A DNA stretch of 64,000 bases, taken from Verrucomicrobiia bacterium (GTDB lineage: Bacteria; Verrucomicrobiota; Verrucomicrobiia; Limisphaerales; UBA1319). The position numbers and the translations under genes were made by a program. The notes under the pieces are model-generated. The model was given only the letters and a program-made list of their open reading frames with translations. It had not been told where the DNA came from and made no database searches. Shown one piece after another: positions 2,009 through 44,844 of this stretch. Numbering within the stretch: position 1 is the first letter of the stretch; the number at the start of each line of letters is the position of its first letter. The DNA is taken from contig OY760937.1 in NCBI GenBank assembly GCA_963664225.1, forward strand, positions 3,136,001 to 3,200,000, written 5' to 3'.

Positions 2009-5000
2009 TTAATGTATCTCCGAAACCGCTGTGGTCCGCAGTGTGACCGGTCCAATCAGGCCGGATTCCTGGAGTTGGTCATCCTTTTTCCAGAGCCTCC
2101 AACTCGTGAAGGTAAGGCGGCCAGTGGGACTGGGCTTCCCATCGTTGACCCACTGTGGCCACCCCTTGAGCGTGCCGTCGCCGTTGCGCTGGCTGTCTTC
2201 GGGTAGTTGCTCGTCGCCGATCAGGCGGTTGATCCAGAGGTTGACAACCTTCACTTCGAGCACATTTTCGCCTGGCTTCAGGGCATTTGTAACCTCCACA
2301 CGGAACGGAGGTTTCCAGAGGATGCCCAAGTCGTGGCCGTTCAATTTGACTTCCGCCATCACGGCAACCTTGCCCAGATCGAGGAAGAGACGGTTGAGGC
2401 TTGAGGGTTGCGAGCTCAGGGTAAAGGTCTTCCGATAACTCGCCGTCCCGGAGTAGTAGCGGATGCCCTCTTCGGAACGCTTGGACCAATCCTCAAGCGG
2501 GTCGAAGGTCGCGCTTTCAGGGCCGCCCCACTTGGGATCAAAGCGCACCTCCCATGGGCCGGTCAATTCCATCGATTGCGGAATAGTCTCCACTTTCACC
2601 TTTTGCACCTGACCGGAGGCGCTCACGAGTTCGTATTCGCCTGGCTCGCGGGCTTCCAATTGGGCGTGCCCCTGCGCGTCGCACCGGACTTGCACAACCG
2701 CGCCCGGTGGCACGGGCCCGGTGACAAAATCCACCATGTCCGGATCCGTGCCGGTCAGGTGGAGGCGTTTGCCGTTGAGCGTGTATTCCACATCGAGTGT
2801 TTTTATCAGGCCAAAAGCCGGATCATCGCCCGCCGCCATGCGCGCAACGAGGAAACTGCTTTCCCCGGCATCCAGGAGGCGCTGCAGCTTTTCCCGCACG
2901 TCGCGAGTCCGCTTCGGATCGCCCAGCACGCCGTAGCGCGCCACCTCCACCCGCGCGCCGACCGCGTTGCGCCCCAGAAGGACCGTGTCTCCATCGCGCC
3001 ATTTCCCGGTAAACGACTGCCCGTCGATGCTGTAATCGACCTCGAGCGTCTTTACCACATTCAGGGCGGGATCGTCTCCATCGGCCATCGCGGTAACGGG
3101 AAAGCTATGGTCGAACGCGTCGGCTTTGACCTGCACTTTTGCCGTCACGTCGCGCGTGCGCTGCGGGTCGTTCAGCACTCCGTAGCGCGCCTGGCGCACG
3201 GTGATCTTCAACGGCGGTTCCTGTCCGGCCGTGAGAAGCGTCTTTCCTGCGCGGCGCACCTGCGCGATGGGGTCGCCGTCTCCTGAGCGTTCGCGGAAAA
3301 TTACGAACACGGAGCCATTCGGCCCCAGCGTCAGCGAAACACGGGTGACTCCGTCTTTCACTTCATGCACTCCGGCGCGTTCCGTAAGCCCCGTTTCTGG
3401 CGACCAAAACTCCGGAACCTTGCCTGACACGCGGAAGGCGCATGTGGCGGTGGTTTCGAACGGCTGGCCGTTGGCCACGAAATAAATCTCCGCGTCGCCG
3501 CTGCTGCGGTGGATGAAGCGCCACGGCTGGCCGCAGACGAAATCGGGTTGCACCCCGCTTTGTTGCAGAACCTTTTCGACCGCCAGTCCCCAGACGATGC
3601 GCCCCTTTCCAAAGGCATGTTCCTTCACCCCCTGGCCGTCGCAATCGCCCCAAAGCTCGGCGCCCAACTTTTGCACTTCCTCGTCGCACTGCGGATGGCC
3701 GCTCAAGCTCGGTGACTTCAGCGGGCGGGGGCCGACCACCGTGGCCCCGGCTTCGACGAGTTCCTTGAGCTTGCGCAGCAACCGCGGCGTCATCGTCCGC
3801 GCGTCTGACAGGGCCAGCAGACGGTAACTCATGCCATCCGGCAACACGATGCGCCCATCGCGCACGGACATTCGCGTCATCACAGCGTCATCGGTGCATT
3901 CATCCCAGTCGTAGCCGTTGCGCGAATGGTTGCCAAAACCCATCGGCGGGGCTTCCGCCTGGAGATGGCAGACATCCGCGACGAACAATCCCTGCCGCAG
4001 TAAAAACTGGCAGCGCGCCAGATACTCGTGCCACGCGCGCGATTGCTCCCACCAGGTCTGCGTGCGCTCGTAATGCTGGCCCCACGGCCCCATCGTCATG
4101 CCCGGACGGTAGTCGGCCCACGGCTGCATGGCGTAGCGATGAAAGACGAAGCGGTTGATGCCCTCGCAGAACGCGCGGTCGCCCAGCGACTTCAACAAGG
4201 CCGGATGCTCGCGCCACCGTTCCTGGTCCCCCGACGTGAAGGCTTCCGCTCCGATGATCGGTTTGCCATAGACGTGACCCGCCGAGGCCATGCCGCGGCA
4301 GGTTTCCATCGAACCGCCGCCCGGGGTCCAGAACTCGCCCATCGGCTCATCGGCCTGGCCGCCATAGGGAATGTAGTCGCAAGGGCTGCCATAGGCTTCG
4401 CAGGTGAAGCGCATTGCGTTCGCGTTGGCCAGCCCGTGGAACCGGCCCGCATAGTTCTCGATCACCAGCTCGGAAACCGTGCGCCGCACGTCCCAGAGAA
4501 ACCGCTCCGACACTTCGAGGCTGCTCACGACACGCCCGGTGAATACCGGCAGGAACGGCGTCAAATCATAGCCGTGCCGCTGCTGGAACTCTTCCCGCAT
4601 CTTTGCGGTCCAGTTCTGCGAACCGTTCTCCCAACTGTCAATGTGTGTGGCCACCAGGCCGCCCGGCGTGCGCTGCGCCGTGATGCCCGTGTCGCCCGCC
4701 AGCCTGGCCATCATGCCGTTGAAATTCGCCTCGATACCTTCCTTGCTGAGCTTGTCGCATTCGAGGCCGCGACCCGTCATCGGCGCAGGCGCGTTTTCAG
4801 CGCCGGTGCTCGTGTGGCCAATGCGCAGAATCGTCCACTCTCCCGCTGGCACATCCCAAACCAGTCGCCCGTTTGCATCCATCCACGCGGCCAGGTTGGT
4901 GATCGCATTCTGGCCGATGATCGATTTCTCCGTCAGTTCACCCTTCCCTGGCTTGCGGCCGCGAAAATTCTGGAACGCAGCCTTGGACTCGATCCCCGGT

Positions 5001-36078: not shown

Positions 36079-36987
36079 TTAATTTGAGAGTGCAAAATCT
36101 GCGTTTTTGAGGATTTGGTTCATCAGGACAATGAGTTTGCGCATGACGGCGGTGAGCGCGACTTTGGCGGGCTTGCCCGCCAATCGGAGTCGTTCGTAGA
36201 ACTCCTTGAGTTGGCGATTGCAGCGCGCAGCCACCAGGGCGGCCATGTAGAGGGCACGTCTAACGGCGGCTCTTCCGCCACCGATGGAGCGGCGGCCTTG
36301 CCACTGGCCGCTTTCTCGAGGATGTGGAGCCAGTCCGGCCAAGGCGGCGGCCTGCCCCCGATTGAGCGTGCCCAACTCGGGCAGCTCAGCCAAAACCCCC
36401 AAGGCGGTAATCGCGCCCACCCCGGTGATGGCTTCGAGTTTTTTTGCGCGTTCATCCAGTTCTGTGGTTTTCTGGCGCAGCGCTTTGAGTTGGGTCTCGA
36501 TATGCTCCAGATCCCGTTCCAATCGACGCAGCAGGCTCTGGGCCTGGCGGCGCAACTTGGGCAGCGTGAGGCGTTCGATCTGATGGCGCTGGCTAATAAG
36601 CAGATCAAGGATCTGAGTGCGGCGGCGAACCAGTTCGGTCAACTGCTCCTCCACCTCGGAACGCGCGGGCGTGGGTTTGGGGGCGAAGGCCTGCCCATAG
36701 GCGGAGAGGACGGCGGCATCTATACGGTCGGTTTTGGCCCGTTGTCCCTGGGCGCGGGCGGGATTGATGATGCTGACAGGAATGCTGGCATGATGGAGGG
36801 CGTCAGCCACCTCACGCTCGTAGCCGCCGGTGGCTTCACAGATGACGTGAGCGCCGGGATGCTGCGCCAGGAGTTTGACGAGCTGGCGATGACCGGCGGC
36901 GGTATTGGGCAGATGGTGGGAACGACCGGCCAGTTGGAGATCAAGACTCAGCTTGGCAATATCCAAACCAGCGTAGATAGTGGTCAT
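36079..36987 (-). CDS. IS110 DEDD recombinase/transposase
   Basis: AGLDIAK, CEATGGYE, KTDRIDA, GVGAITA, GLAPHPRESG and ALYMAA motifs; alternative start at 37002. Confidence 0.93.
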   Translation of the reverse strand: MTTIYAGLDIAKLSLDLQLAGRSHHLPNTAAGHRQLVKLLAQHPGAHVICEATGGYEREVADALHHASIPVSIINPARAQGQRAKTDRIDAAVLSAYGQAFAPKPTPARSEVEEQLTELVRRRTQILDLLISQRHQIERLTLPKLRRQAQSLLRRLERDLEHIETQLKALRQKTTELDERAKKLEAITGVGAITALGVLAELPELGTLNRGQAAALAGLAPHPRESGQWQGRRSIGGGRAAVRRALYMAALVAARCNRQLKEFYERLRLAGKPAKVALTAVMRKLIVLMNQILKNADFALSN

Positions 36988-36988
36988 A

Positions 36989-37170
36989 GTGTTCTGGCTC
37001 ATTCTTGTAAATACGAGCAGGCCTTGGTGGGCCGCTCAAGCAACGGTTCGAGTTTAGGACACAGGCACGAACGGCTCTGGCTCCTCGCGCATTTGGTTAA
37101 AAACCAATGCAAGAAGGAAACGAGCTCGTCCGCGCCACTGTCCTGCCGCCTGCAGGCGGCAGGACAGTTC
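36989..37170 (-). ncRNA. Predicted bridge RNA of IS110 no.1
   Basis: 5' hairpin, target-binding loop and donor-binding loop with guide segments matching the element's own junctions (see findings). Confidence 0.8.
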
Positions 37171-37816: not shown

Positions 37817-39193
37817 TCAGATCTCCACGGTCTGGCCGGGAGTCGGCTCGAGAATCTTGATCCGCGGATGACGGGCGTGAATCTCCTGCTTGAACCATGC
37901 GATGGATTCGTCCTGGCCGTGGCCGAGGACAATGGTGCGCGGGTTCACCTGCGCGACAAAATCCATCATGTCATTGCGGTTGGCATGGGCGGTAAGATCG
38001 AAAATATCCATTTCGCATTTGCGGGTGAGTTCACCGGCTGATTTGCTAAAGAGGAAGGTATCGCCCGGTTTGGTGATTTTGAGGTGACCGCCGGGGGTGT
38101 CGGGATCCGCGTAGCCCACGAAGAAAATGGCGTGCTTTTCATCGCTCATGATCCGCACCGCCAGGTCGTGCGCGGCGGTGTTCTCGCTCATCATTCCCGA
38201 GGTCACCACAAAGATGCGGCCGCCGGTAAGGCGCATTTTCTGGGCCTGACCGGATTCGAGCACCTGCAGATCGAGGGCTTCATTGAGCATCAACGCGCTG
38301 TGCTGGCGGCAGGTGCGGTGGGCCTCCAGGTCGTAGATTTCCGTAAAGACGCGTCCCAGGCCGCCAATATAGATGGGTTGGCGCTTGAGTTTGCCCTCCC
38401 GCATCATCAATGCCAGCATGGCCAATACTTCCTGTGTCCGCCCCAGGGCGAATGAAGGAATCAGCACGCTGCCCTTGCGCTTGAGAACCTTTTGAATGGA
38501 CTCGGCGAGGCGCTGGACCTCGTTATCCCGGGAAAATCCGGGCGGCAACGCGCGGCTGCCCCGGGTGGTTTCCATGAGGAGGACATCCGCCTGAACTTCC
38601 TGGCACCGGGCGCCGCGGAGCAGGGTCTGGTCATGGAAACAGATATCGCCGGTGTAGAAAAACGTCTCTTTGCTGCCGCGAACCATGACTCCGGCGGAGC
38701 CGAGGGTGTGGCCGGCGTCGAAGAATTCGAGCGTGGGCGAGGTGAGGCCGGCGCGGGATTTGTGAAACGCGGCCCATTCGATTTCGCGATTGTAGCGGAA
38801 CCCCTGGAACCGGGCCGAGAGTTCGTCCACCTCGTCATGGTCATAGAGCGGATAATCGGGGATGCCCAGCTCGGTGCGCTGGCGGGTCATGACATTGACC
38901 GAGTTATGCAAAATCCGTTCGACCACGTAATAGCTCAAGTCGGTCATCAGGACGTGCGCGCGGGGAAACTGACGCATGGCCAGCGGCAGGGAGCCGACAT
39001 GATCGTGGTGGCAATGGGATATGGCGATGGCGTCCACATCCTCTTTTTTGATCTGACCGTAGAGCGGCAGGCTGTCTGTGCCTTCGCGTTTGGGGTGGGT
39101 TCCGGCATCCAGGAGCAGTCGATTGTCCTGAATATTCAACAACCACGCGCTGGCGCCAATCTCCTTTGCGGGGTTTAAATTCGTAATTCGCAT
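37817..39193 (-). CDS. MBL-fold beta-CASP ribonuclease (YSH1/CPSF-like)
   Basis: EIGAS, SHCHHDHVGSL, AGHTLGS, YTGD, FALGRTQE, TAHA and GHG motifs. Confidence 0.9.
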   Translation of the reverse strand: MRITNLNPAKEIGASAWLLNIQDNRLLLDAGTHPKREGTDSLPLYGQIKKEDVDAIAISHCHHDHVGSLPLAMRQFPRAHVLMTDLSYYVVERILHNSVNVMTRQRTELGIPDYPLYDHDEVDELSARFQGFRYNREIEWAAFHKSRAGLTSPTLEFFDAGHTLGSAGVMVRGSKETFFYTGDICFHDQTLLRGARCQEVQADVLLMETTRGSRALPPGFSRDNEVQRLAESIQKVLKRKGSVLIPSFALGRTQEVLAMLALMMREGKLKRQPIYIGGLGRVFTEIYDLEAHRTCRQHSALMLNEALDLQVLESGQAQKMRLTGGRIFVVTSGMMSENTAAHDLAVRIMSDEKHAIFFVGYADPDTPGGHLKITKPGDTFLFSKSAGELTRKCEMDIFDLTAHANRNDMMDFVAQVNPRTIVLGHGQDESIAWFKQEIHARHPRIKILEPTPGQTVEI

Positions 39194-39373: not shown

Positions 39374-40231
39374 GGGCGCAGGACACGATTCAGGATTGTG
39401 GAAGACTGCCATGGCAGTGCGCTGTTTTAAATCGGTTTTGCGGCAACGGCAGAACCGGCTTGCGGGGATCGCGGCGAAATTGAAACCGCCCGATTCAATA
39501 ACACCGTAAGCCGGTCAGGAGACCGGCGCTCGTGTGTCTGGCAGGTATTGGATCTATTGGGATGAAAGGAGCCCAACGGGGGCGGTGACGCCAACCGTAG
39601 CGGTAGGCCAGGTTCGATCCGCGAGGGTCGGACGCGAAAGGGCCGAGAGCAAAGGCGCGACCGTAGGAACACGAACGGGCAGTGAGGCCGGGTGCGTGGG
39701 TTAGCTGGCGAGTAACGGCGAAACCCAAAGGTCATCCAAACGCATCAGGTAGAGCCCGGCGGCGCGCGCCGACAGAGTCAATACCGACCCAGAGAGATCT
39801 GTCCCGTGAGAGCGGGACAGAAGTCAGCAGAGGCCATAGTAGTGATGAGGCCCGGTGAAAGCCGGGAGGAGCGAAGGGCCGAAGGAACAAACGGAGCCAA
39901 CCAAGGCGTTGGACATGAGGACGAGTGATGGAATGAAGCAACAGGACGCAACAATTACGGTTACCATCCTGGCACTGGCAAACGGCGGGCCCAACGCTGG
40001 AAGCGCCCAACCCGTCGAAGTATTCCGGGGTCACATGTCTGCACGACTGGGAAGGAAGAACTCTGAATGTTCCAACCGCCGGATGCGAGAAAACCGCACG
40101 TCCGGTGGTGTGGGAGGGTGCCGGGGCGAAATCCCTGGCACCCGACCCGATCGAAGTCACCTGGCGCCCTATATAGTTATAGGACGTTTCAAGGCCTTTT
40201 TCCATTTCCTGAAGAATTTTGTCACGCACCC
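39374..40231. mobile_element. Putative MITE-like cassette hosting the group II intron (no target duplication seen)
   Basis: Left end GGGCGCAGGACACGATTCAGG; right end GAAGAATTTTGTCACGCACCC. The last 66 bp are colinear with 45020-45085. Confidence 0.5.
39532..40151 (+). ncRNA. ORF-less group II intron, class IIC-like
   Basis: 5' GTGTG; AAGTCAGCAGAGGCCATAGTAG D2-D3 signature; D5 ACCGCCGGATGCG..CGCACGTCCGGTGGT with CGC triad (40075-40109); D6 ending CCCGACCCGAT; no RT ORF. Confidence 0.9.
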
Positions 40232-40250: not shown

Positions 40251-40279
40251 TTGACACCTGGGGGGTGGGCTGTTAGCGT
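40251..40279 (+). promoter_or_regulatory. sigma70-type promoter of ileS
   Basis: TTGACA-17 bp-TAGCGT with extended -10 TG. Confidence 0.7.
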
Positions 40280-40294
40280 AATTGTCTTATAAAA

Positions 40295-43120
40295 ATGGCA
40301 ATGGACTATAAAAATTCGTTGAATTTGCCCAAGACGGACTTCCCCATGAAGGCCGATCTGGTGTCCCGGGAACCCCAGCGTCTGGAAAAGTGGGAGTCGG
40401 GCCAACTGTATGAAAAAATCCTGGCCCGGCGGGCGGCGGCCTCGCGGTTTATTTTGCATGACGGGCCGCCGTTCGCCAATGGGGATGTGCACATCGGCAC
40501 GGCGCTGAACAAGATTCTCAAGGATTTCATCATCAAGTACCACACGTTGCGCGGGCAGAACGCCCCCTATGTGCCGGGCTGGGATTGCCATGGGCTGCCC
40601 ATCGAATTCAAAGTGGTGCAGGAGCTTCGCAAAAAGGCCGGGGAAGCCGCCGCGGGGGCCGATGCCGCCACGATTCGCAAGGAATGCGCGGCGTATGCGC
40701 GCAAGTATATCGATTTGCAGCGGACGCAATTCAAGCGCCTGGGTGTGCTCGGGGATTGGGAGCATCCCTACCTGACGTTGGACCCCGCGTATGAAGCCGC
40801 GGAGCTGGGAATGTTCGCGGATATCGTGGACAAGGGCTTCGTTTACCGGGGCAAGAAACCGGTGTATTGGAGCATCCCGTGCCGCACCGCGCTGGCCGAG
40901 GCCGAGGTGGAATACCAGGACCATGTGAGCCAGAGCGTGTTTGTGAAATTCCCGGTGATCGGCCGGCCCAACACCTTTGTGGTGATCTGGACGACGACGC
41001 CGTGGACGCTGCCCGCGAACCTGGCCATCGCCTTTAATTCGACCCTGAGCTACACGATCGTGCATACCGGCGATGCGAGCTACATCGTCGCTGTGTCGCT
41101 TTTAAGTTCCGTGGCGGAGAAATGCGGCTGGGAGAATTACCAGATCATGCGCAGCCTCACCGGCGAGGAACTGGCGACCTATGTCTGCCAGCATCCGTTC
41201 TGCAACCGGCCCGCGCCGTTGCTGGCGGGAGACGCCTTCGTGGAGAGCACCACCGGTTCGGGCTTTGTGCATATCGCCCCGGGCCACGGTCTGGAGGATT
41301 ATCAACTGGGCCGTCAGAATGGCTTGCCCATCTACTCCCCGGTGGACGACAACGGCTGCCTGTGTTACACGCAAGACCTGCCCGTGGAGCAGCAGATGCC
41401 CGCGTCGCTGATCGGCAAAAGCATTCTGGAGAAGAATCACAAGAGCGATGCCAACGAGGCCGTTCTGGAGATCCTGCGCGAGGGCCAGATGCTTCTGCGC
41501 CAGGAGCCTTACACGCACAGCTACCCGCATTGCTGGCGGAGCAAGACCCCGGTGATCTTCCGCGCCATGGACCAATGGTTCATCCGCATCGACCATCAGG
41601 ATTTCCGCAACCAGGCCTTGAAGGCCATCGACCAGGTGAAATGGATTCCCGACTGGGGCAAGAGCCGCATCGAGGGGGCCGTGAAATCCCGCCCGGACTG
41701 GTGCATCTCGCGCCAGCGCTGCTGGGGCGTGCCAATCCCGGCCTTTTACGACGCCGAGCGCACTCCCATCCTGGACGCGCGCATCGTGCGCAACGCCGCC
41801 GCGTTATTCGAGAAATCCGGCTCCAATGTGTGGTTCGAGAAAACCGCGGAGGAATTATGGGCGCTGCTCCGGCCCGCGGATTGGAACGGTCCCGAGGCCA
41901 CCGCGAAATCGACCGACACGCTGGACGTGTGGATCGATTCCGGTTCCTCCTCGCGCAGCGTTTTGCAGAAGCGGCCTGAGCTGGCCCATCACCTGGCGGG
42001 TGTGGACGACTGGCAGGCGGATATCTACCTCGAGGGCAGCGACCAGCATCGCGGATGGTTCCAGTCCTCGCTGTTGCTCTCCCTCGCCGGGAATGGCGCG
42101 CCTCCCTATAAGACGGTGCTCACGCACGGGTTCATGGTGGATGCGGATCGCGAGAAAATTTCCAAGAGCAAGCAGGGCCAGGGCGGTTACGAGAAACCGC
42201 AGACCTCGGAGGCCTATGTCAAAAAATATGGCGCGGACGTGGTCCGGCTCTGGGTGGCCTCGCAGGATTATCGCAACGACATCATCGTGAGCGAGGAGCG
42301 CATCAGCAAGGTGGGCGAGACCTACCGCGTGATCCGGAACTCCCTGCGCTTCCAGCTCTCGAATCTCTTTGATTTCGATCCCGCGAAGCATCTGGTCGCG
42401 CCGGAGAAGATGACCGCGCTGGACCGCTGGATTCTGGACGCCTTTGCCGTGCTGGAGACGGAAATTGCCGCCGCCTACGAGGCGAGCGAGTTCCATGTGG
42501 TCTATCAGAAGATCAGCCAGTTCGTGGCGGTGGAGCTTTCCTCCGTCTATCACGATGTGGTGAAAGACCGCCTCTACACCGACGCGGCGAATTCGAACCG
42601 CCGGCGTTCCACGCAAACCGCCCTTTACTTGCTGGCGCGGGGCCTTTGCCAGGCGCTCTCGCCCATCCTGACCTTCACTGCGGACGAGGCCTGGGAATAT
42701 CTCCCCGGCGTTCAGCCAGGCGAATCGGTCCATGCCACGGATTGGACATTATTGGCGACCCGGCGTACTGAAGAGGAGCAGGAGACCTGGAAAAAGCTGA
42801 TGCACCTGCGGGACCTCGCGCTGCCGGAGCTGGAGAAGGCGCGCCAGGCCAAGCTCATCGGCAAATCGCTTGAGGCCAAAATAACGCTGACCGGACGGGC
42901 GGCCGAATTGCCCGCAGCGGATGCCGCAAAGGAAACGCTGCGCGAGTTGCTCAACGTGTCGCAACTGGAATTGATCCTGGACGAGGCGGACGTGGTCGTT
43001 TCCGTGGCGCGCTCCGGGGGTCAGAAGTGCGAGCGCTGCTGGCGCTGGGAATTGACGGTGGGCAGCCACACAGACCACCCGACCATCTGCGGGCGCTGTG
43101 TCGAGGCCGTGACGGCGTAA
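40295..43120 (+). CDS. ileS: Isoleucyl-tRNA synthetase (type 1)
   Basis: LHDGPPFANG, PGWDCHGLP, WTTTPWTLP, DWCISRQR, EGSDQHRGWF and KISKS motifs; C-terminal CERCW...CGRC zinc finger. Confidence 0.97.
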   Translation: MAMDYKNSLNLPKTDFPMKADLVSREPQRLEKWESGQLYEKILARRAAASRFILHDGPPFANGDVHIGTALNKILKDFIIKYHTLRGQNAPYVPGWDCHGLPIEFKVVQELRKKAGEAAAGADAATIRKECAAYARKYIDLQRTQFKRLGVLGDWEHPYLTLDPAYEAAELGMFADIVDKGFVYRGKKPVYWSIPCRTALAEAEVEYQDHVSQSVFVKFPVIGRPNTFVVIWTTTPWTLPANLAIAFNSTLSYTIVHTGDASYIVAVSLLSSVAEKCGWENYQIMRSLTGEELATYVCQHPFCNRPAPLLAGDAFVESTTGSGFVHIAPGHGLEDYQLGRQNGLPIYSPVDDNGCLCYTQDLPVEQQMPASLIGKSILEKNHKSDANEAVLEILREGQMLLRQEPYTHSYPHCWRSKTPVIFRAMDQWFIRIDHQDFRNQALKAIDQVKWIPDWGKSRIEGAVKSRPDWCISRQRCWGVPIPAFYDAERTPILDARIVRNAAALFEKSGSNVWFEKTAEELWALLRPADWNGPEATAKSTDTLDVWIDSGSSSRSVLQKRPELAHHLAGVDDWQADIYLEGSDQHRGWFQSSLLLSLAGNGAPPYKTVLTHGFMVDADREKISKSKQGQGGYEKPQTSEAYVKKYGADVVRLWVASQDYRNDIIVSEERISKVGETYRVIRNSLRFQLSNLFDFDPAKHLVAPEKMTALDRWILDAFAVLETEIAAAYEASEFHVVYQKISQFVAVELSSVYHDVVKDRLYTDAANSNRRRSTQTALYLLARGLCQALSPILTFTADEAWEYLPGVQPGESVHATDWTLLATRRTEEEQETWKKLMHLRDLALPELEKARQAKLIGKSLEAKITLTGRAAELPAADAAKETLRELLNVSQLELILDEADVVVSVARSGGQKCERCWRWELTVGSHTDHPTICGRCVEAVTA

Positions 43121-43299: not shown

Positions 43300-43570
43300 A
43301 ATCATCCGTTGGCGAGGAGAGCCCCGGGAAGCTCCCCGTAGCCAACGGTGAATAACTGTGCCGCCGCCAAAAAATCGAGCGGTGAAAAACTTTTGTCGCC
43401 GGGGTATAATGCTTCTGGCGGCATCGCCCCGGATGGATCACGGTCATACACCCCTTGTCTTAAGAAGACTGAGGAGAGTTTACCGGCCCGTCCGACGGCG
43501 CCTGTCAAAAAGTCTGAGAGAACTATTGCCCGCGAGGCTTCCTGTATCAGGTTGACTGACGACAGCGCTC
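43300..43570 (+). ncRNA. Predicted bridge RNA of IS110 no.2
   Basis: 5' hairpin (CCGTTGGC/GCCAACGG), then two internal loops with junction-matching guides. Confidence 0.78.
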
Positions 43571-43593
43571 CGATGCCCCGTAACGGAGGATCT

Positions 43594-44844
43594 ATGAAAT
43601 CATGGTTGGAGATATCCTGTTTTGCCGGATTGGATTGGGCCCGGGATCATCACGATGTGGTCATCGTCGATCGAGAGGGCAAGATCGTGGAACAGTTCCG
43701 CTTCGAGCATTCCCAGGAAGGCTGGGAGCAATGGCGGAAAAAGACGGCGCCCTTCGCCCCTTTGGCGGTGGCCATTGAGACGAGCTTCGGCACGGCTGTG
43801 GACCAGCTCCTGAGGGGGGAGGCAACGGTCTATCCGGTCAATCCCAAGAGCGCCCAGCGGTATCGGGATCGCAAGGTGCCCAGCGGCAGCAAGACCGATT
43901 TTCTGGATGCCTGGTCTCTGGCCGATGCCTTGCGGATCGACGGGCACGGTTGGAAAGCGCTGGTCCCAACGGACGCGCTGACCAGCCAGTTGCAGATGCT
44001 CTGCCGGGATGAGGTTCATCTCATCGGTCAGCGCACGCTGTTCGTAAATCAATTGCAACAAGCTCTCTTGGAATACTATCCGGCGGCCCTGGAGGCCTTT
44101 GAGGATTGGACCATGGCCTCGGCGTGGGATTTCATCATTGAGTTTCCAACGCCTCGTGCGCTGGTCAAAGCCGGCAAGCGACGGTGGGAAAAGTTCCTGC
44201 ACGTTCATAAGCTCTGGCGGCCGGAAACCGCTGAAAAACGGATGGGCATTTTTGCACGGGCCGATCAGTTTTGCGGCTCGGCGGCCCTGACGGCGGCCAA
44301 GGGCACCCTGGCGGTGAGCCTGGCCAAAATGTTACGCACGTTGCAGCAGCAACTGGATGTTTATCACGCGCAAATCCAGGCCTTGTTTGCACAGCACCCC
44401 GACCATGACTTGTTCGGTTCGCTGCCCGGAGCGGGCTCGTTTTTGGCTCCACGGCTGCTGGGAGAAATCGGCGGCGGGTCGGGCCGGTTTGAAAGCGCAC
44501 AGCATCTGCAGGGCATTGCGGGCACGGCTCCTGTGAGTTATCAATCGGGACAAATCGACAAGGTCCGCATCCGCCACCACTGCGACAAGTTCCTCCGCCA
44601 TGCCGTGCATCTGTGGAGCGATTGCAGTCGCAAGAAATGTCTTTGGGCACAGGTTTACTACCAGAAAAAACGGGAAGAGGGCAAAAGCCATGCCTGCGCC
44701 TTGCGATGTCTGGGCCAGCGGTGGCTCAAAATCATCTGGAAAATGCTCCAAACCCACGCGCCCTACGATCCGGAAATACATGCCAAAAACCAGCAGCTGC
44801 ATGGTTCGTGGGTGCTGAGTCTGCAGACCAAAACCGCCAGGTAA
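43594..44844 (+). CDS. IS110 DEDD recombinase/transposase (long type)
   Basis: FAGLDWA, AIETS, KTDFLDA, SLPGAG and GTAPVSYQSG motifs; RBS GGAGGA before ATG 43594. Confidence 0.93.
   Translation: MKSWLEISCFAGLDWARDHHDVVIVDREGKIVEQFRFEHSQEGWEQWRKKTAPFAPLAVAIETSFGTAVDQLLRGEATVYPVNPKSAQRYRDRKVPSGSKTDFLDAWSLADALRIDGHGWKALVPTDALTSQLQMLCRDEVHLIGQRTLFVNQLQQALLEYYPAALEAFEDWTMASAWDFIIEFPTPRALVKAGKRRWEKFLHVHKLWRPETAEKRMGIFARADQFCGSAALTAAKGTLAVSLAKMLRTLQQQLDVYHAQIQALFAQHPDHDLFGSLPGAGSFLAPRLLGEIGGGSGRFESAQHLQGIAGTAPVSYQSGQIDKVRIRHHCDKFLRHAVHLWSDCSRKKCLWAQVYYQKKREEGKSHACALRCLGQRWLKIIWKMLQTHAPYDPEIHAKNQQLHGSWVLSLQTKTAR

Follow-up and report, generated by a model that had tools for sequence, protein, structure and literature searches.

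Locus and intron anatomy

The 64,000-nt stretch analysed here (the window) belongs to a Verrucomicrobiia bacterium (Limisphaerales, UBA1319; GenBank assembly GCA_963664225.1, contig OY760937.1, positions 3,136,001 to 3,200,000). In it, a gene for a beta-CASP RNA hydrolase and the divergently oriented ileS are separated by an intergenic region that holds a hairpin, GCCGGT-CAGGAG-ACCGGC, and, after the four bases GCTC, a group II intron of 620 nt without an open reading frame (ORF). This arrangement upstream of ileS, including the 4-nt spacing, was described in an original prediction made from the letters alone and can be read directly from the DNA. The element is an intact-looking, non-autonomous class C (group IIC) intron in a repetitive extragenic palindrome (REP). 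It varies a theme of known biology and does not make up a new kind of element. Coordinates are window positions (Table 1) unless prefixed C1, which denotes the one contig of the host genome (5.78 Mb).

The intron starts with GTGTG at 39532 and finishes with CCCGAT at 40151, in agreement with the GUGYG and AY ends of group II introns. At Rfam gathering thresholds it matches both the domain I model RF02001, group-II-D1D4-3 (39615-39783; 84.7 bits, cut-off 32, E 1.8e-15), and the domain V/VI model RF00029 (40074-40151; 44.7 bits, cut-off 40, E 1.5e-5). Its minimum free energy (MFE) fold has all six domains at -264.5 kcal/mol (z -6.98), and none of 20 shuffled sequences was equally stable. Domains V and VI (D5 and D6) appear in this fold as well as in the Rfam match, so the earlier view of them as intact holds, as does the estimate of under 200 nt for domain IV (DIV). 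The 620-nt element is thus a complete group II ribozyme with no space for a reverse transcriptase (RT).

The assignment to class C is made from sequence features: the domain I model, the CGC triad of D5, short pairings between exon-binding sites (EBS1 and EBS3) and intron-binding sites (IBS1 and IBS3), insertion after a stem-loop, and the RT of a full-length relative described below. CGC at the catalytic triad of D5 is a hallmark of group IIC introns; here it aligns with AGC in the Rfam consensus. The position that IBS2 would take is occupied by the hairpin. The short frame QRWKRPTRR had been read as a possible maturase remnant. It does exist in frame 1, but it bears no likeness to the RT of the full-length relative, whose best tblastn match in the intron (E 0.041) falls in D5/D6, and we discard that reading.

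Table 1. Features of the intron locus, in window coordinates
Feature	Position	Strand	Basis or remark
Beta-CASP / metallo-beta-lactamase-fold RNA hydrolase gene	37817..39193	-	Divergent neighbour
5' part of REP unit	39440..39531	+	About 80% like the genome's 85-bp unit of REP/BIME (bacterial interspersed mosaic element) type
Hairpin GCCGGT/CAGGAG/ACCGGC	39510-39527	+	Extendable to a 7-bp stem, GCCGGTC-AGGA-GACCGGC
IBS1, GCTC	39528-39531	+	Between hairpin and intron start
ORF-less group IIC intron, 620 nt, GTGTG...CGAT	39532..40151	+	Rfam, fold, three copies and the full-length parent
Domain I (approximate)	39532..39791	+	MFE fold; RF02001 spans 39615-39783; holds EBS1 and EBS3
EBS1, GAGT, in loop GC-GAGT-AA (39708-39715)	39710..39713	+	Covariation
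EBS3 candidate G (intron nt 221)	39752	+	Pairs with first 3'-exon base, C40152
Domains II and III (approximate)	39792..39879	+	MFE fold; both small
Domain IV, about 185 nt	39880..40066	+	Fold and sequence comparison; no RT ORF; resembles the DIV segment before the parent's ORF at about 56%
Family-conserved domain IV stem-loop	39943..39970	+	Compensatory changes; possible RT-binding site (inferred)
Domain V, 34 nt, CGC at the triad position	40068..40101	+	Rfam alignment and fold
Domain VI with bulged G40144/A40145	40103..40149	+	Fold; putative branch point A40145, at the seventh position counted back from the intron's last base
3' exon, remainder of REP unit (CGAAGTCACC...)	40152..40165	+	Starts CGAAG; IBS3 is C40152
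TTGACA box upstream of ileS	40251..40256	+	Downstream of the intron; conserved in a same-genus genome (G001)
ileS	40295..43120	+	Neighbour, not part of the element

Sister copies and a full-length parent

Rather than a single decayed copy, the host genome holds near-identical sister insertions next to similar hairpins. Seven DNA matches to the 620 nt were found: three full-length copies (the window's and two others), two that are the ends of a longer parent intron, and two fragments. The window copy is identical over all 620 nt to C1:1236926-1237545(-), and the copy at C1:1795259-1795878(+) differs from it at two positions (nt 101 and 490). When the 1-kb flanks of the three copies and the parent were compared, the sole likeness was between the window copy and the parent, which share 122 nt of REP sequence on their upstream side; because the flanks are unlike beyond the REP, these are separate insertions and not segmental duplications. 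The element thus has the traits of a non-autonomous intron: it carries no RT ORF, a cognate RT lies elsewhere in the genome, and near-identical copies occupy unrelated sites. The two fragments, C1:5031161-5031249(-) and C1:3429273-3429331(-), consist of D5-D6 only, of related introns (likeness 92% and 85%), and no intron sequence precedes them, which matches what 5'-truncated cDNA insertions would leave.

The parent is an intron of 1879 nt present in a single full-length copy, C1:2134364-2136242(+). Over nt 1-349, which comprise domains I to III, it differs from the window type at 3 of 349 positions, and D5-D6 are identical. Its intact ORF of 416 amino acids (intron nt 536-1786) includes a YADD motif and scores 404 bits on the NCBIfam group II RT/maturase model; in Pfam it has RVT_1 and GIIM only, with no endonuclease domain. 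The best solved matches of this RT are all IIC enzymes (6ar1, 7uim, 5hhl and 5hhj). GsI-IIC RT is the top one (E 2.8e-144), and the IIC RT of Eubacterium rectale and a pair of fragments of IIC RTs also lie far ahead of IIB and IIA RTs. The host genome has 24 maturase-domain matches in all, of which 19 belong to one other intron family, four to another, and one is the parent.

The target at the window site is a REP, not a terminator

All four copies, the parent included, follow a GC-rich hairpin and the bases RCTC, without a T-tract. The window copy and the parent share one target, GCCGGTC-AGGA-GACCGGC followed by GCTC, with a 3' exon that starts CGAAG. In the two sisters the hairpin is CCGGC-TGAA(A)-GCCGG(G) and the next bases are ACTC, with a 3' exon that starts CATAC. 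Removing the window intron joins GCTC to CGAAG, as had been expected, and copies of this repeat that carry no intron read just like this joint. Cognate sites with hairpin, RCTC and C that carry no intron number 65 for the first family and 18 for the second, 83 altogether.

The 18-nt window hairpin has 63 exact copies in the genome and 105 at up to 2 mismatches. Most of these belong to 85-bp units repeated head to tail; one such array counts 12 copies at 94% identity. One gene (C1:3015629-3016456, 275 aa) encodes a REP-associated tyrosine transposase (RAYT; NCBIfam NF047646, 98.9 bits, cut-off 80), and the motif GGTAA-GCCGGTCTGGAGACCGGC-NCTCCG stands about 50 nt before its start and again about 50 nt after its stop. 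Since the hairpin lies on both sides of the RAYT gene, it belongs to a REP with its RAYT, which bears out the original assignment. The window hairpin is therefore a true REP, a multicopy palindrome that flanks the RAYT gene on both sides; extragenic location was checked for the window's copy, which is a single unit in the divergent intergenic region between the beta-CASP gene (-) and ileS (+). The sisters' hairpin family, with 32 near copies of which only one is near a Y1 transposase gene, is graded REP-like only. Another array, of nine units with a 76-bp period (C1:1978640-1979265), carries the window hairpin with one loop base changed, beside 85-bp arrays.

Classical terminator homing does not fit the window site. 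The absence of a U-tract noted earlier is borne out, as no T-run around the insertion exceeds 1; a simple terminator scan does not call the hairpin, and the upstream gene is on the opposite strand. The arrays of the window-hairpin family carry no cassettes, which together with the flanking of the RAYT gene argues against attC sites for this family.

The orientation of the REPs tracks the replichores: hairpins of the main family are on the + strand at 1.87-2.6 Mb and almost always on the - strand at 3.0-4.9 Mb and 0.1-0.5 Mb, and the window REP is one of few in the opposite orientation. With dnaA at 2.99 Mb and ORF orientation switching near 3.0-3.25 and 1.25 Mb, very unequal replication arms are implied. 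The GC skew of this genome is not classical.

Covariation points to the target-recognition bases

The parent RT was used to recruit 77 loci from public genomes, among which 27 full-length relatives had both ends mapped and the EBS1 loop aligned. Together with the four copies of the host genome these make up a set of 31 insertions. The loop words (GAGU, GAGC, UAGC, UGGG, GACC, UGGA and others) vary together with the last four bases of the 5' exon, and 112 of the 124 positions are paired. Counting only the 18 distinct combinations, 65 of 72 positions pair, compared with 44.5 +/- 3.3 for shuffled partners, and none of 10000 shuffles reached 65. This covariation confirms, at the level of sequence, the earlier proposal that GAGT at 39710-39713 is EBS1 and GCTC its IBS1. 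The loop GAGU pairs perfectly with ACUC, and with one G.U in the pairing with GCUC.

EBS3 was sought by scanning domain I columns against the first base of the 3' exon. Among the 15 columns listed, only one, at nt 221, is paired in 22 of 22 family members, as A-T twice, C-G once and G.T once among others. G39752 in this column is the likely EBS3.

The hairpin rule extends through the family. A hairpin scoring at least 5 ends 0-7 nt before the intron in 26 of the 31 insertions, compared with 200 of 2000 random genome positions, and a T-run longer than 3 within -8 to +10 was found at 0 of the 31 sites.

A diverged domain IV within a near-identical ribozyme

The window type and the parent are 99-100% alike except from nt 350 to about 530; there the likeness drops to 56%, or 110 of 197 columns, and gaps are present. 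A plain deletion of the ORF from the parent is thus excluded as the origin of the window copy by the diverged DIV within a near-identical ribozyme. The window DIV has no match elsewhere in the host genome, and intron nt 359-536 had none in 61 related genomes outside the host genome. A degenerate DIV pattern found six loci in genome_contigs, all of the parent type, and a 19-nt DIV word found one locus in metagenome_contigs, a match of only 24 nt without an intron.

The segment of DIV that precedes the parent ORF is recognisably like 21 family loci; the window DIV gave only two weak matches. One stem-loop of the family DIV is nonetheless kept in the window copy, with 8 pairs of which 4 show changes on both sides across 17 sequences. 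Because this stem-loop is maintained through compensatory changes, the comparison argues for homology: the window DIV would have diverged while selection preserved its structure, perhaps for RT binding. An exchange of DIV would need two crossovers at its base, or gene conversion of parts of the ribozyme.

A sub-lineage that uses GC hairpins without T-tracts

RF02001 gives 136-149 bits on seven introns in 6 of 7 Bacillota loci scanned, and 58-136 bits for 23 matches in the loci of 20 further relatives. Of four Bacillaceae-type relatives, three come after a stem-loop with a T-run of 5-7, and one has a run of just 2; among 54 mapped 5' flanks the longest T-runs are 7. A quick maximum-likelihood tree was computed from 48 distinct RTs, leaving aside 29 of the 77 (6 identical to another row, 23 without a mapped flank). 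In this tree, which is unrooted and whose rows were picked for their resemblance to the parent, two habits are separated by a branch with 100% SH-aLRT support. All 23 rows on the parent's side have no T-tract, and 23 of 25 on the other have one, after terminator-like stem-loops. Hosts on the side without T-tracts are Verrucomicrobiota, Acidobacteriota, Lentisphaerota and Coprothermobacterota. Since Acidobacteriota are found on both sides, differences in terminator style between hosts are not the whole explanation of the split. Insertion after a GC hairpin without a T-tract is a habit of the sub-lineage to which the window intron belongs and no peculiarity of this one locus.

The intron flanks are likewise high-copy repeats in two Bryobacterales-type genomes, with 50 and 62 exact pattern matches compared with 0 for the reversed pattern, and some of the matches form close inverted pairs. 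In one Bryobacteraceae genome (G062) the targeted repeat often occurs in close inverted pairs 60-80 nt apart, like the REP doublets known as REPINs (for example C1:625013/625091, 3394195/3394258 and 4665164/4665227 of that genome).

RT-less forms recur as well, as several relatives show. In a Terriglobia metagenome-assembled genome (MAG), a copy of 677 nt has its ORF internally deleted while its ribozyme is complete according to Rfam; it follows CCCAGCAC-TGAA-GTGCTGGG, and its IBS1, GCTA, matches EBS1 UAGC. A genome of the same family has a 529-nt copy without an ORF and without part of domains I to III. In an Acidobacteriota MAG (L080), the Rfam layout suggests two RT-less IIC units of about 625 nt, with unmapped ends, at approximately 796-1420 and 3309-3932; other introns begin at 1421 and 3933, with domain I starting 83 nt later. 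This layout suggests introns that landed directly after the 3' end of another intron.

The intron in other samples

Four sequencing runs were examined, all as contigs, which cannot show RNA ends. One contig of a sludge DNA run (X6) comprises the end of domain III, the whole window-type DIV and the start of D5, with six differences from the window copy, and this run carries the parent type along with a window type that is about 97% alike. An RNA library, a metatranscriptome (X16), has contigs that cover 39650-40044 and share the six DIV differences of the sludge run, in a contig with seven differences overall. This copy, 95-97% alike, has GTGC in place of GAGT in its EBS1 loop (changes at 39711 and 39713), in one 151-nt contig at depth 3. 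GTGC would pair with GCAC, a variant that follows 20 REP hairpins of the host genome, so the change may represent a natural retargeting. In a closely related sample (X4), contigs branch at 39884 into a third DIV sequence on the same domains I to III.

Genomic neighbourhood

The TTGACA box in front of ileS lies 3' of the intron, and the intron is therefore probably not in the ileS leader. A simple promoter scan upstream of ileS found no full site. The ileS gene of the same-genus genome has a different upstream neighbour, which precludes comparison with an orthologous empty site. Two IS110-family transposase genes, at 36079-37002(-) and 43348-44844(+), flank the beta-CASP and ileS pair.

How the element may spread

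We consider it quite probable that the element is a non-autonomous IIC derivative that homes to REPs, with the RT of its cognate parent as a helper in trans. The mobile form would be an RNA with all six ribozyme domains and a short DIV without an RT. It would recognise a GC-rich hairpin, the next four bases (IBS1, RCTC) through EBS1 GAGU and the following base (IBS3, C) through EBS3 G, features that REP-type repeats, not terminators, would supply in this genome. The RT/maturase for splicing help and cDNA synthesis would most likely come in trans from the intron at C1:2134364-2136242. We infer splicing of the RNA, its reverse splicing into REPs and the part of the parent's RT from the anatomy, copies and target rule described above. 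Several observations weigh against this account. Two other families contribute 23 further group II RT genes to the genome, and these are potential helpers. The window DIV is unlike that of the parent, so the copy did not arise by a single deletion from the parent as it stands today, and a source of this DIV was not found in the related genomes, genome_contigs or metagenome_contigs searched. No contig in the four runs holds the exon-exon joint, whether from spliced RNA or an empty allele, although contigs are uninformative either way. Only 4 of 87 cognate sites are occupied (two in each hairpin family). Finally, the choice of replication strand is inconsistent: only the window copy is on the presumed template of the lagging strand, one sister and the parent lie on the other, and one copy is borderline, with four copies too few to say more.

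The intron could also be an inert relic that spread in the past, perhaps in another genome, and no longer splices or moves, its near-identity with the parent being kept up by gene conversion. The low occupancy of targets, the lack of spliced or empty forms in the reads (which are contigs only) and the decay seen in the family as 5'-truncated D5-D6 fragments are all compatible with this, and the swap of DIV requires recombination anyway. We nevertheless find it unlikely, given two copies identical over 620 nt and a third only 2 nt off, ribozyme landmarks that are all intact, an open parent ORF with its catalytic motif, and a 97%-like ORF-less form in other samples, an RNA library among them. 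The repeats themselves offer another route. REPs are mobile or amplifiable, they occur as tandem arrays, and the genome has a RAYT gene; the intron might therefore have been carried passively within REP/BIME units that the REP transposase, or recombination among the repeats, moved or amplified, with no retrohoming of the ORF-less form. Against passive carriage, which we regard as very unlikely, the three ORF-less copies are in two different hairpin families, the shared sequence stops exactly at the first and last base of the intron, nothing beyond REP flanks is held in common, no tandem array carries the intron, and EBS1 fits both target variants, as retrohoming predicts. As for the helper, the full-length relative supplies its RT from one copy only, and with 23 other RT/maturase genes present the RT of the 19-copy or the 4-copy family could serve instead, or splicing could be protein-free. 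That either is so strikes us as highly improbable: a group II RT binds the RNA of its own intron, and here the cognate ribozyme shows 99% identity and the DIV stem-loop specific to the family has been retained.

Beyond REP homing of this element with its parent's help, a broader scenario can be put forward only tentatively. A cross-phylum sub-lineage of class C introns may have moved from terminators to hairpins of REP/REPIN type, with RT-less ribozymes of exchangeable DIV using the RT of a full-length copy. If true, three layers of genomic parasite would be nested here, namely REP, intron and mini-intron. The three DIVs found on one near-identical ribozyme (the window type, the parent type and that of the closely related sample) would mark this domain as a recombination-prone cargo slot, and the introns would share with RAYT transposases the single-strand DNA structures on which both act.

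Comparison with known systems

IIC introns usually follow palindromic sequences (PMC3001079), inserting at terminator motifs and, in a smaller fraction, at attC sites (PMC4424553); their targeting is described as short IBS1 and IBS3 plus a DNA hairpin, by a mechanism that is unknown (PMC3898094). The closest systems are the terminator-homing B.h.I1 of Bacillus halodurans and GsI-IIC of Geobacillus stearothermophilus. These have an RT of the same class as the parent and match the same Rfam domain I model, and they too do without an endonuclease domain and use short EBS1/IBS1 and EBS3/IBS3 pairings with a DNA hairpin target (PMC3898094, PMC4424553). In contrast to them, the window lineage inserts 0-7 nt after GC hairpins with no T-run above 3, and the window copy has no RT. 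IIC-attC introns such as S.ma.I2 of Serratia marcescens are likewise a IIC sub-lineage with a changed hairpin type, a non-terminator palindrome (PMC3001079), whereas the target here is a RAYT-flanking REP in 85-bp tandem arrays without cassettes, and no integron context was seen. Plasmid-borne class C RTs reach at most about 52% full-length identity to the parent RT among the best 25 records listed, and the one plasmid locus opened (Klebsiella) is not in an integron.

The introns in dnaN of Trichodesmium are not known to belong to class C. They and TeI3c of Thermosynechococcus elongatus, which is served by the TeI4c RT, resemble the window copy as ORF-less introns with a related RT-encoding intron in the same genome whose RT can work in trans (PMC3898094, PMC12584367, PMC4424553). 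ORF-less introns are rare in bacteria and usually occur with a related RT in the same genome (PMC4424553); TeI3c is mobilised by the RT of another intron, and it is a IIB intron (PMC3898094), whereas the window intron is of class C, homes to a structure plus five bases, and has a DIV that is swapped, not deleted. REP-targeting insertion sequences and a group II intron of Pseudomonas putida KT2440 also land on REPs. Tobes and Pareja (2006) found the latter associated with REPs in 2 of 9 copies (PMC1525189), compared with all 4 copies in REP-type hairpins at a fixed offset here, and relatives in high-copy repeats in two genomes. A full-text literature search, with many subscription papers outside its reach, found no REP homing by IIC introns beyond the table in PMC1525189, and the accessible portions of the literature on ORF-less IIC introns describe no REP-homing or DIV-swapped RT-less IIC intron.

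Implications

Among group II introns, target choice is least understood in those of class IIC, and the lineage described here offers a natural comparison. The split in the RT tree sets 23 introns without a T-tract, mostly at GC hairpins, against 23 users of terminators. With both habits present among Acidobacteriota hosts, whatever determines the choice should reside in the intron or its RT and be open to mapping. REPs can also be safe landing pads for retroelements. The 620-nt RT-less form, a helper gene and 83 empty targets together make a compact system for the study of trans-mobilisation of IIC introns. ORF-less IIC introns may be more numerous in environmental genomes than surveys based on RTs estimate.

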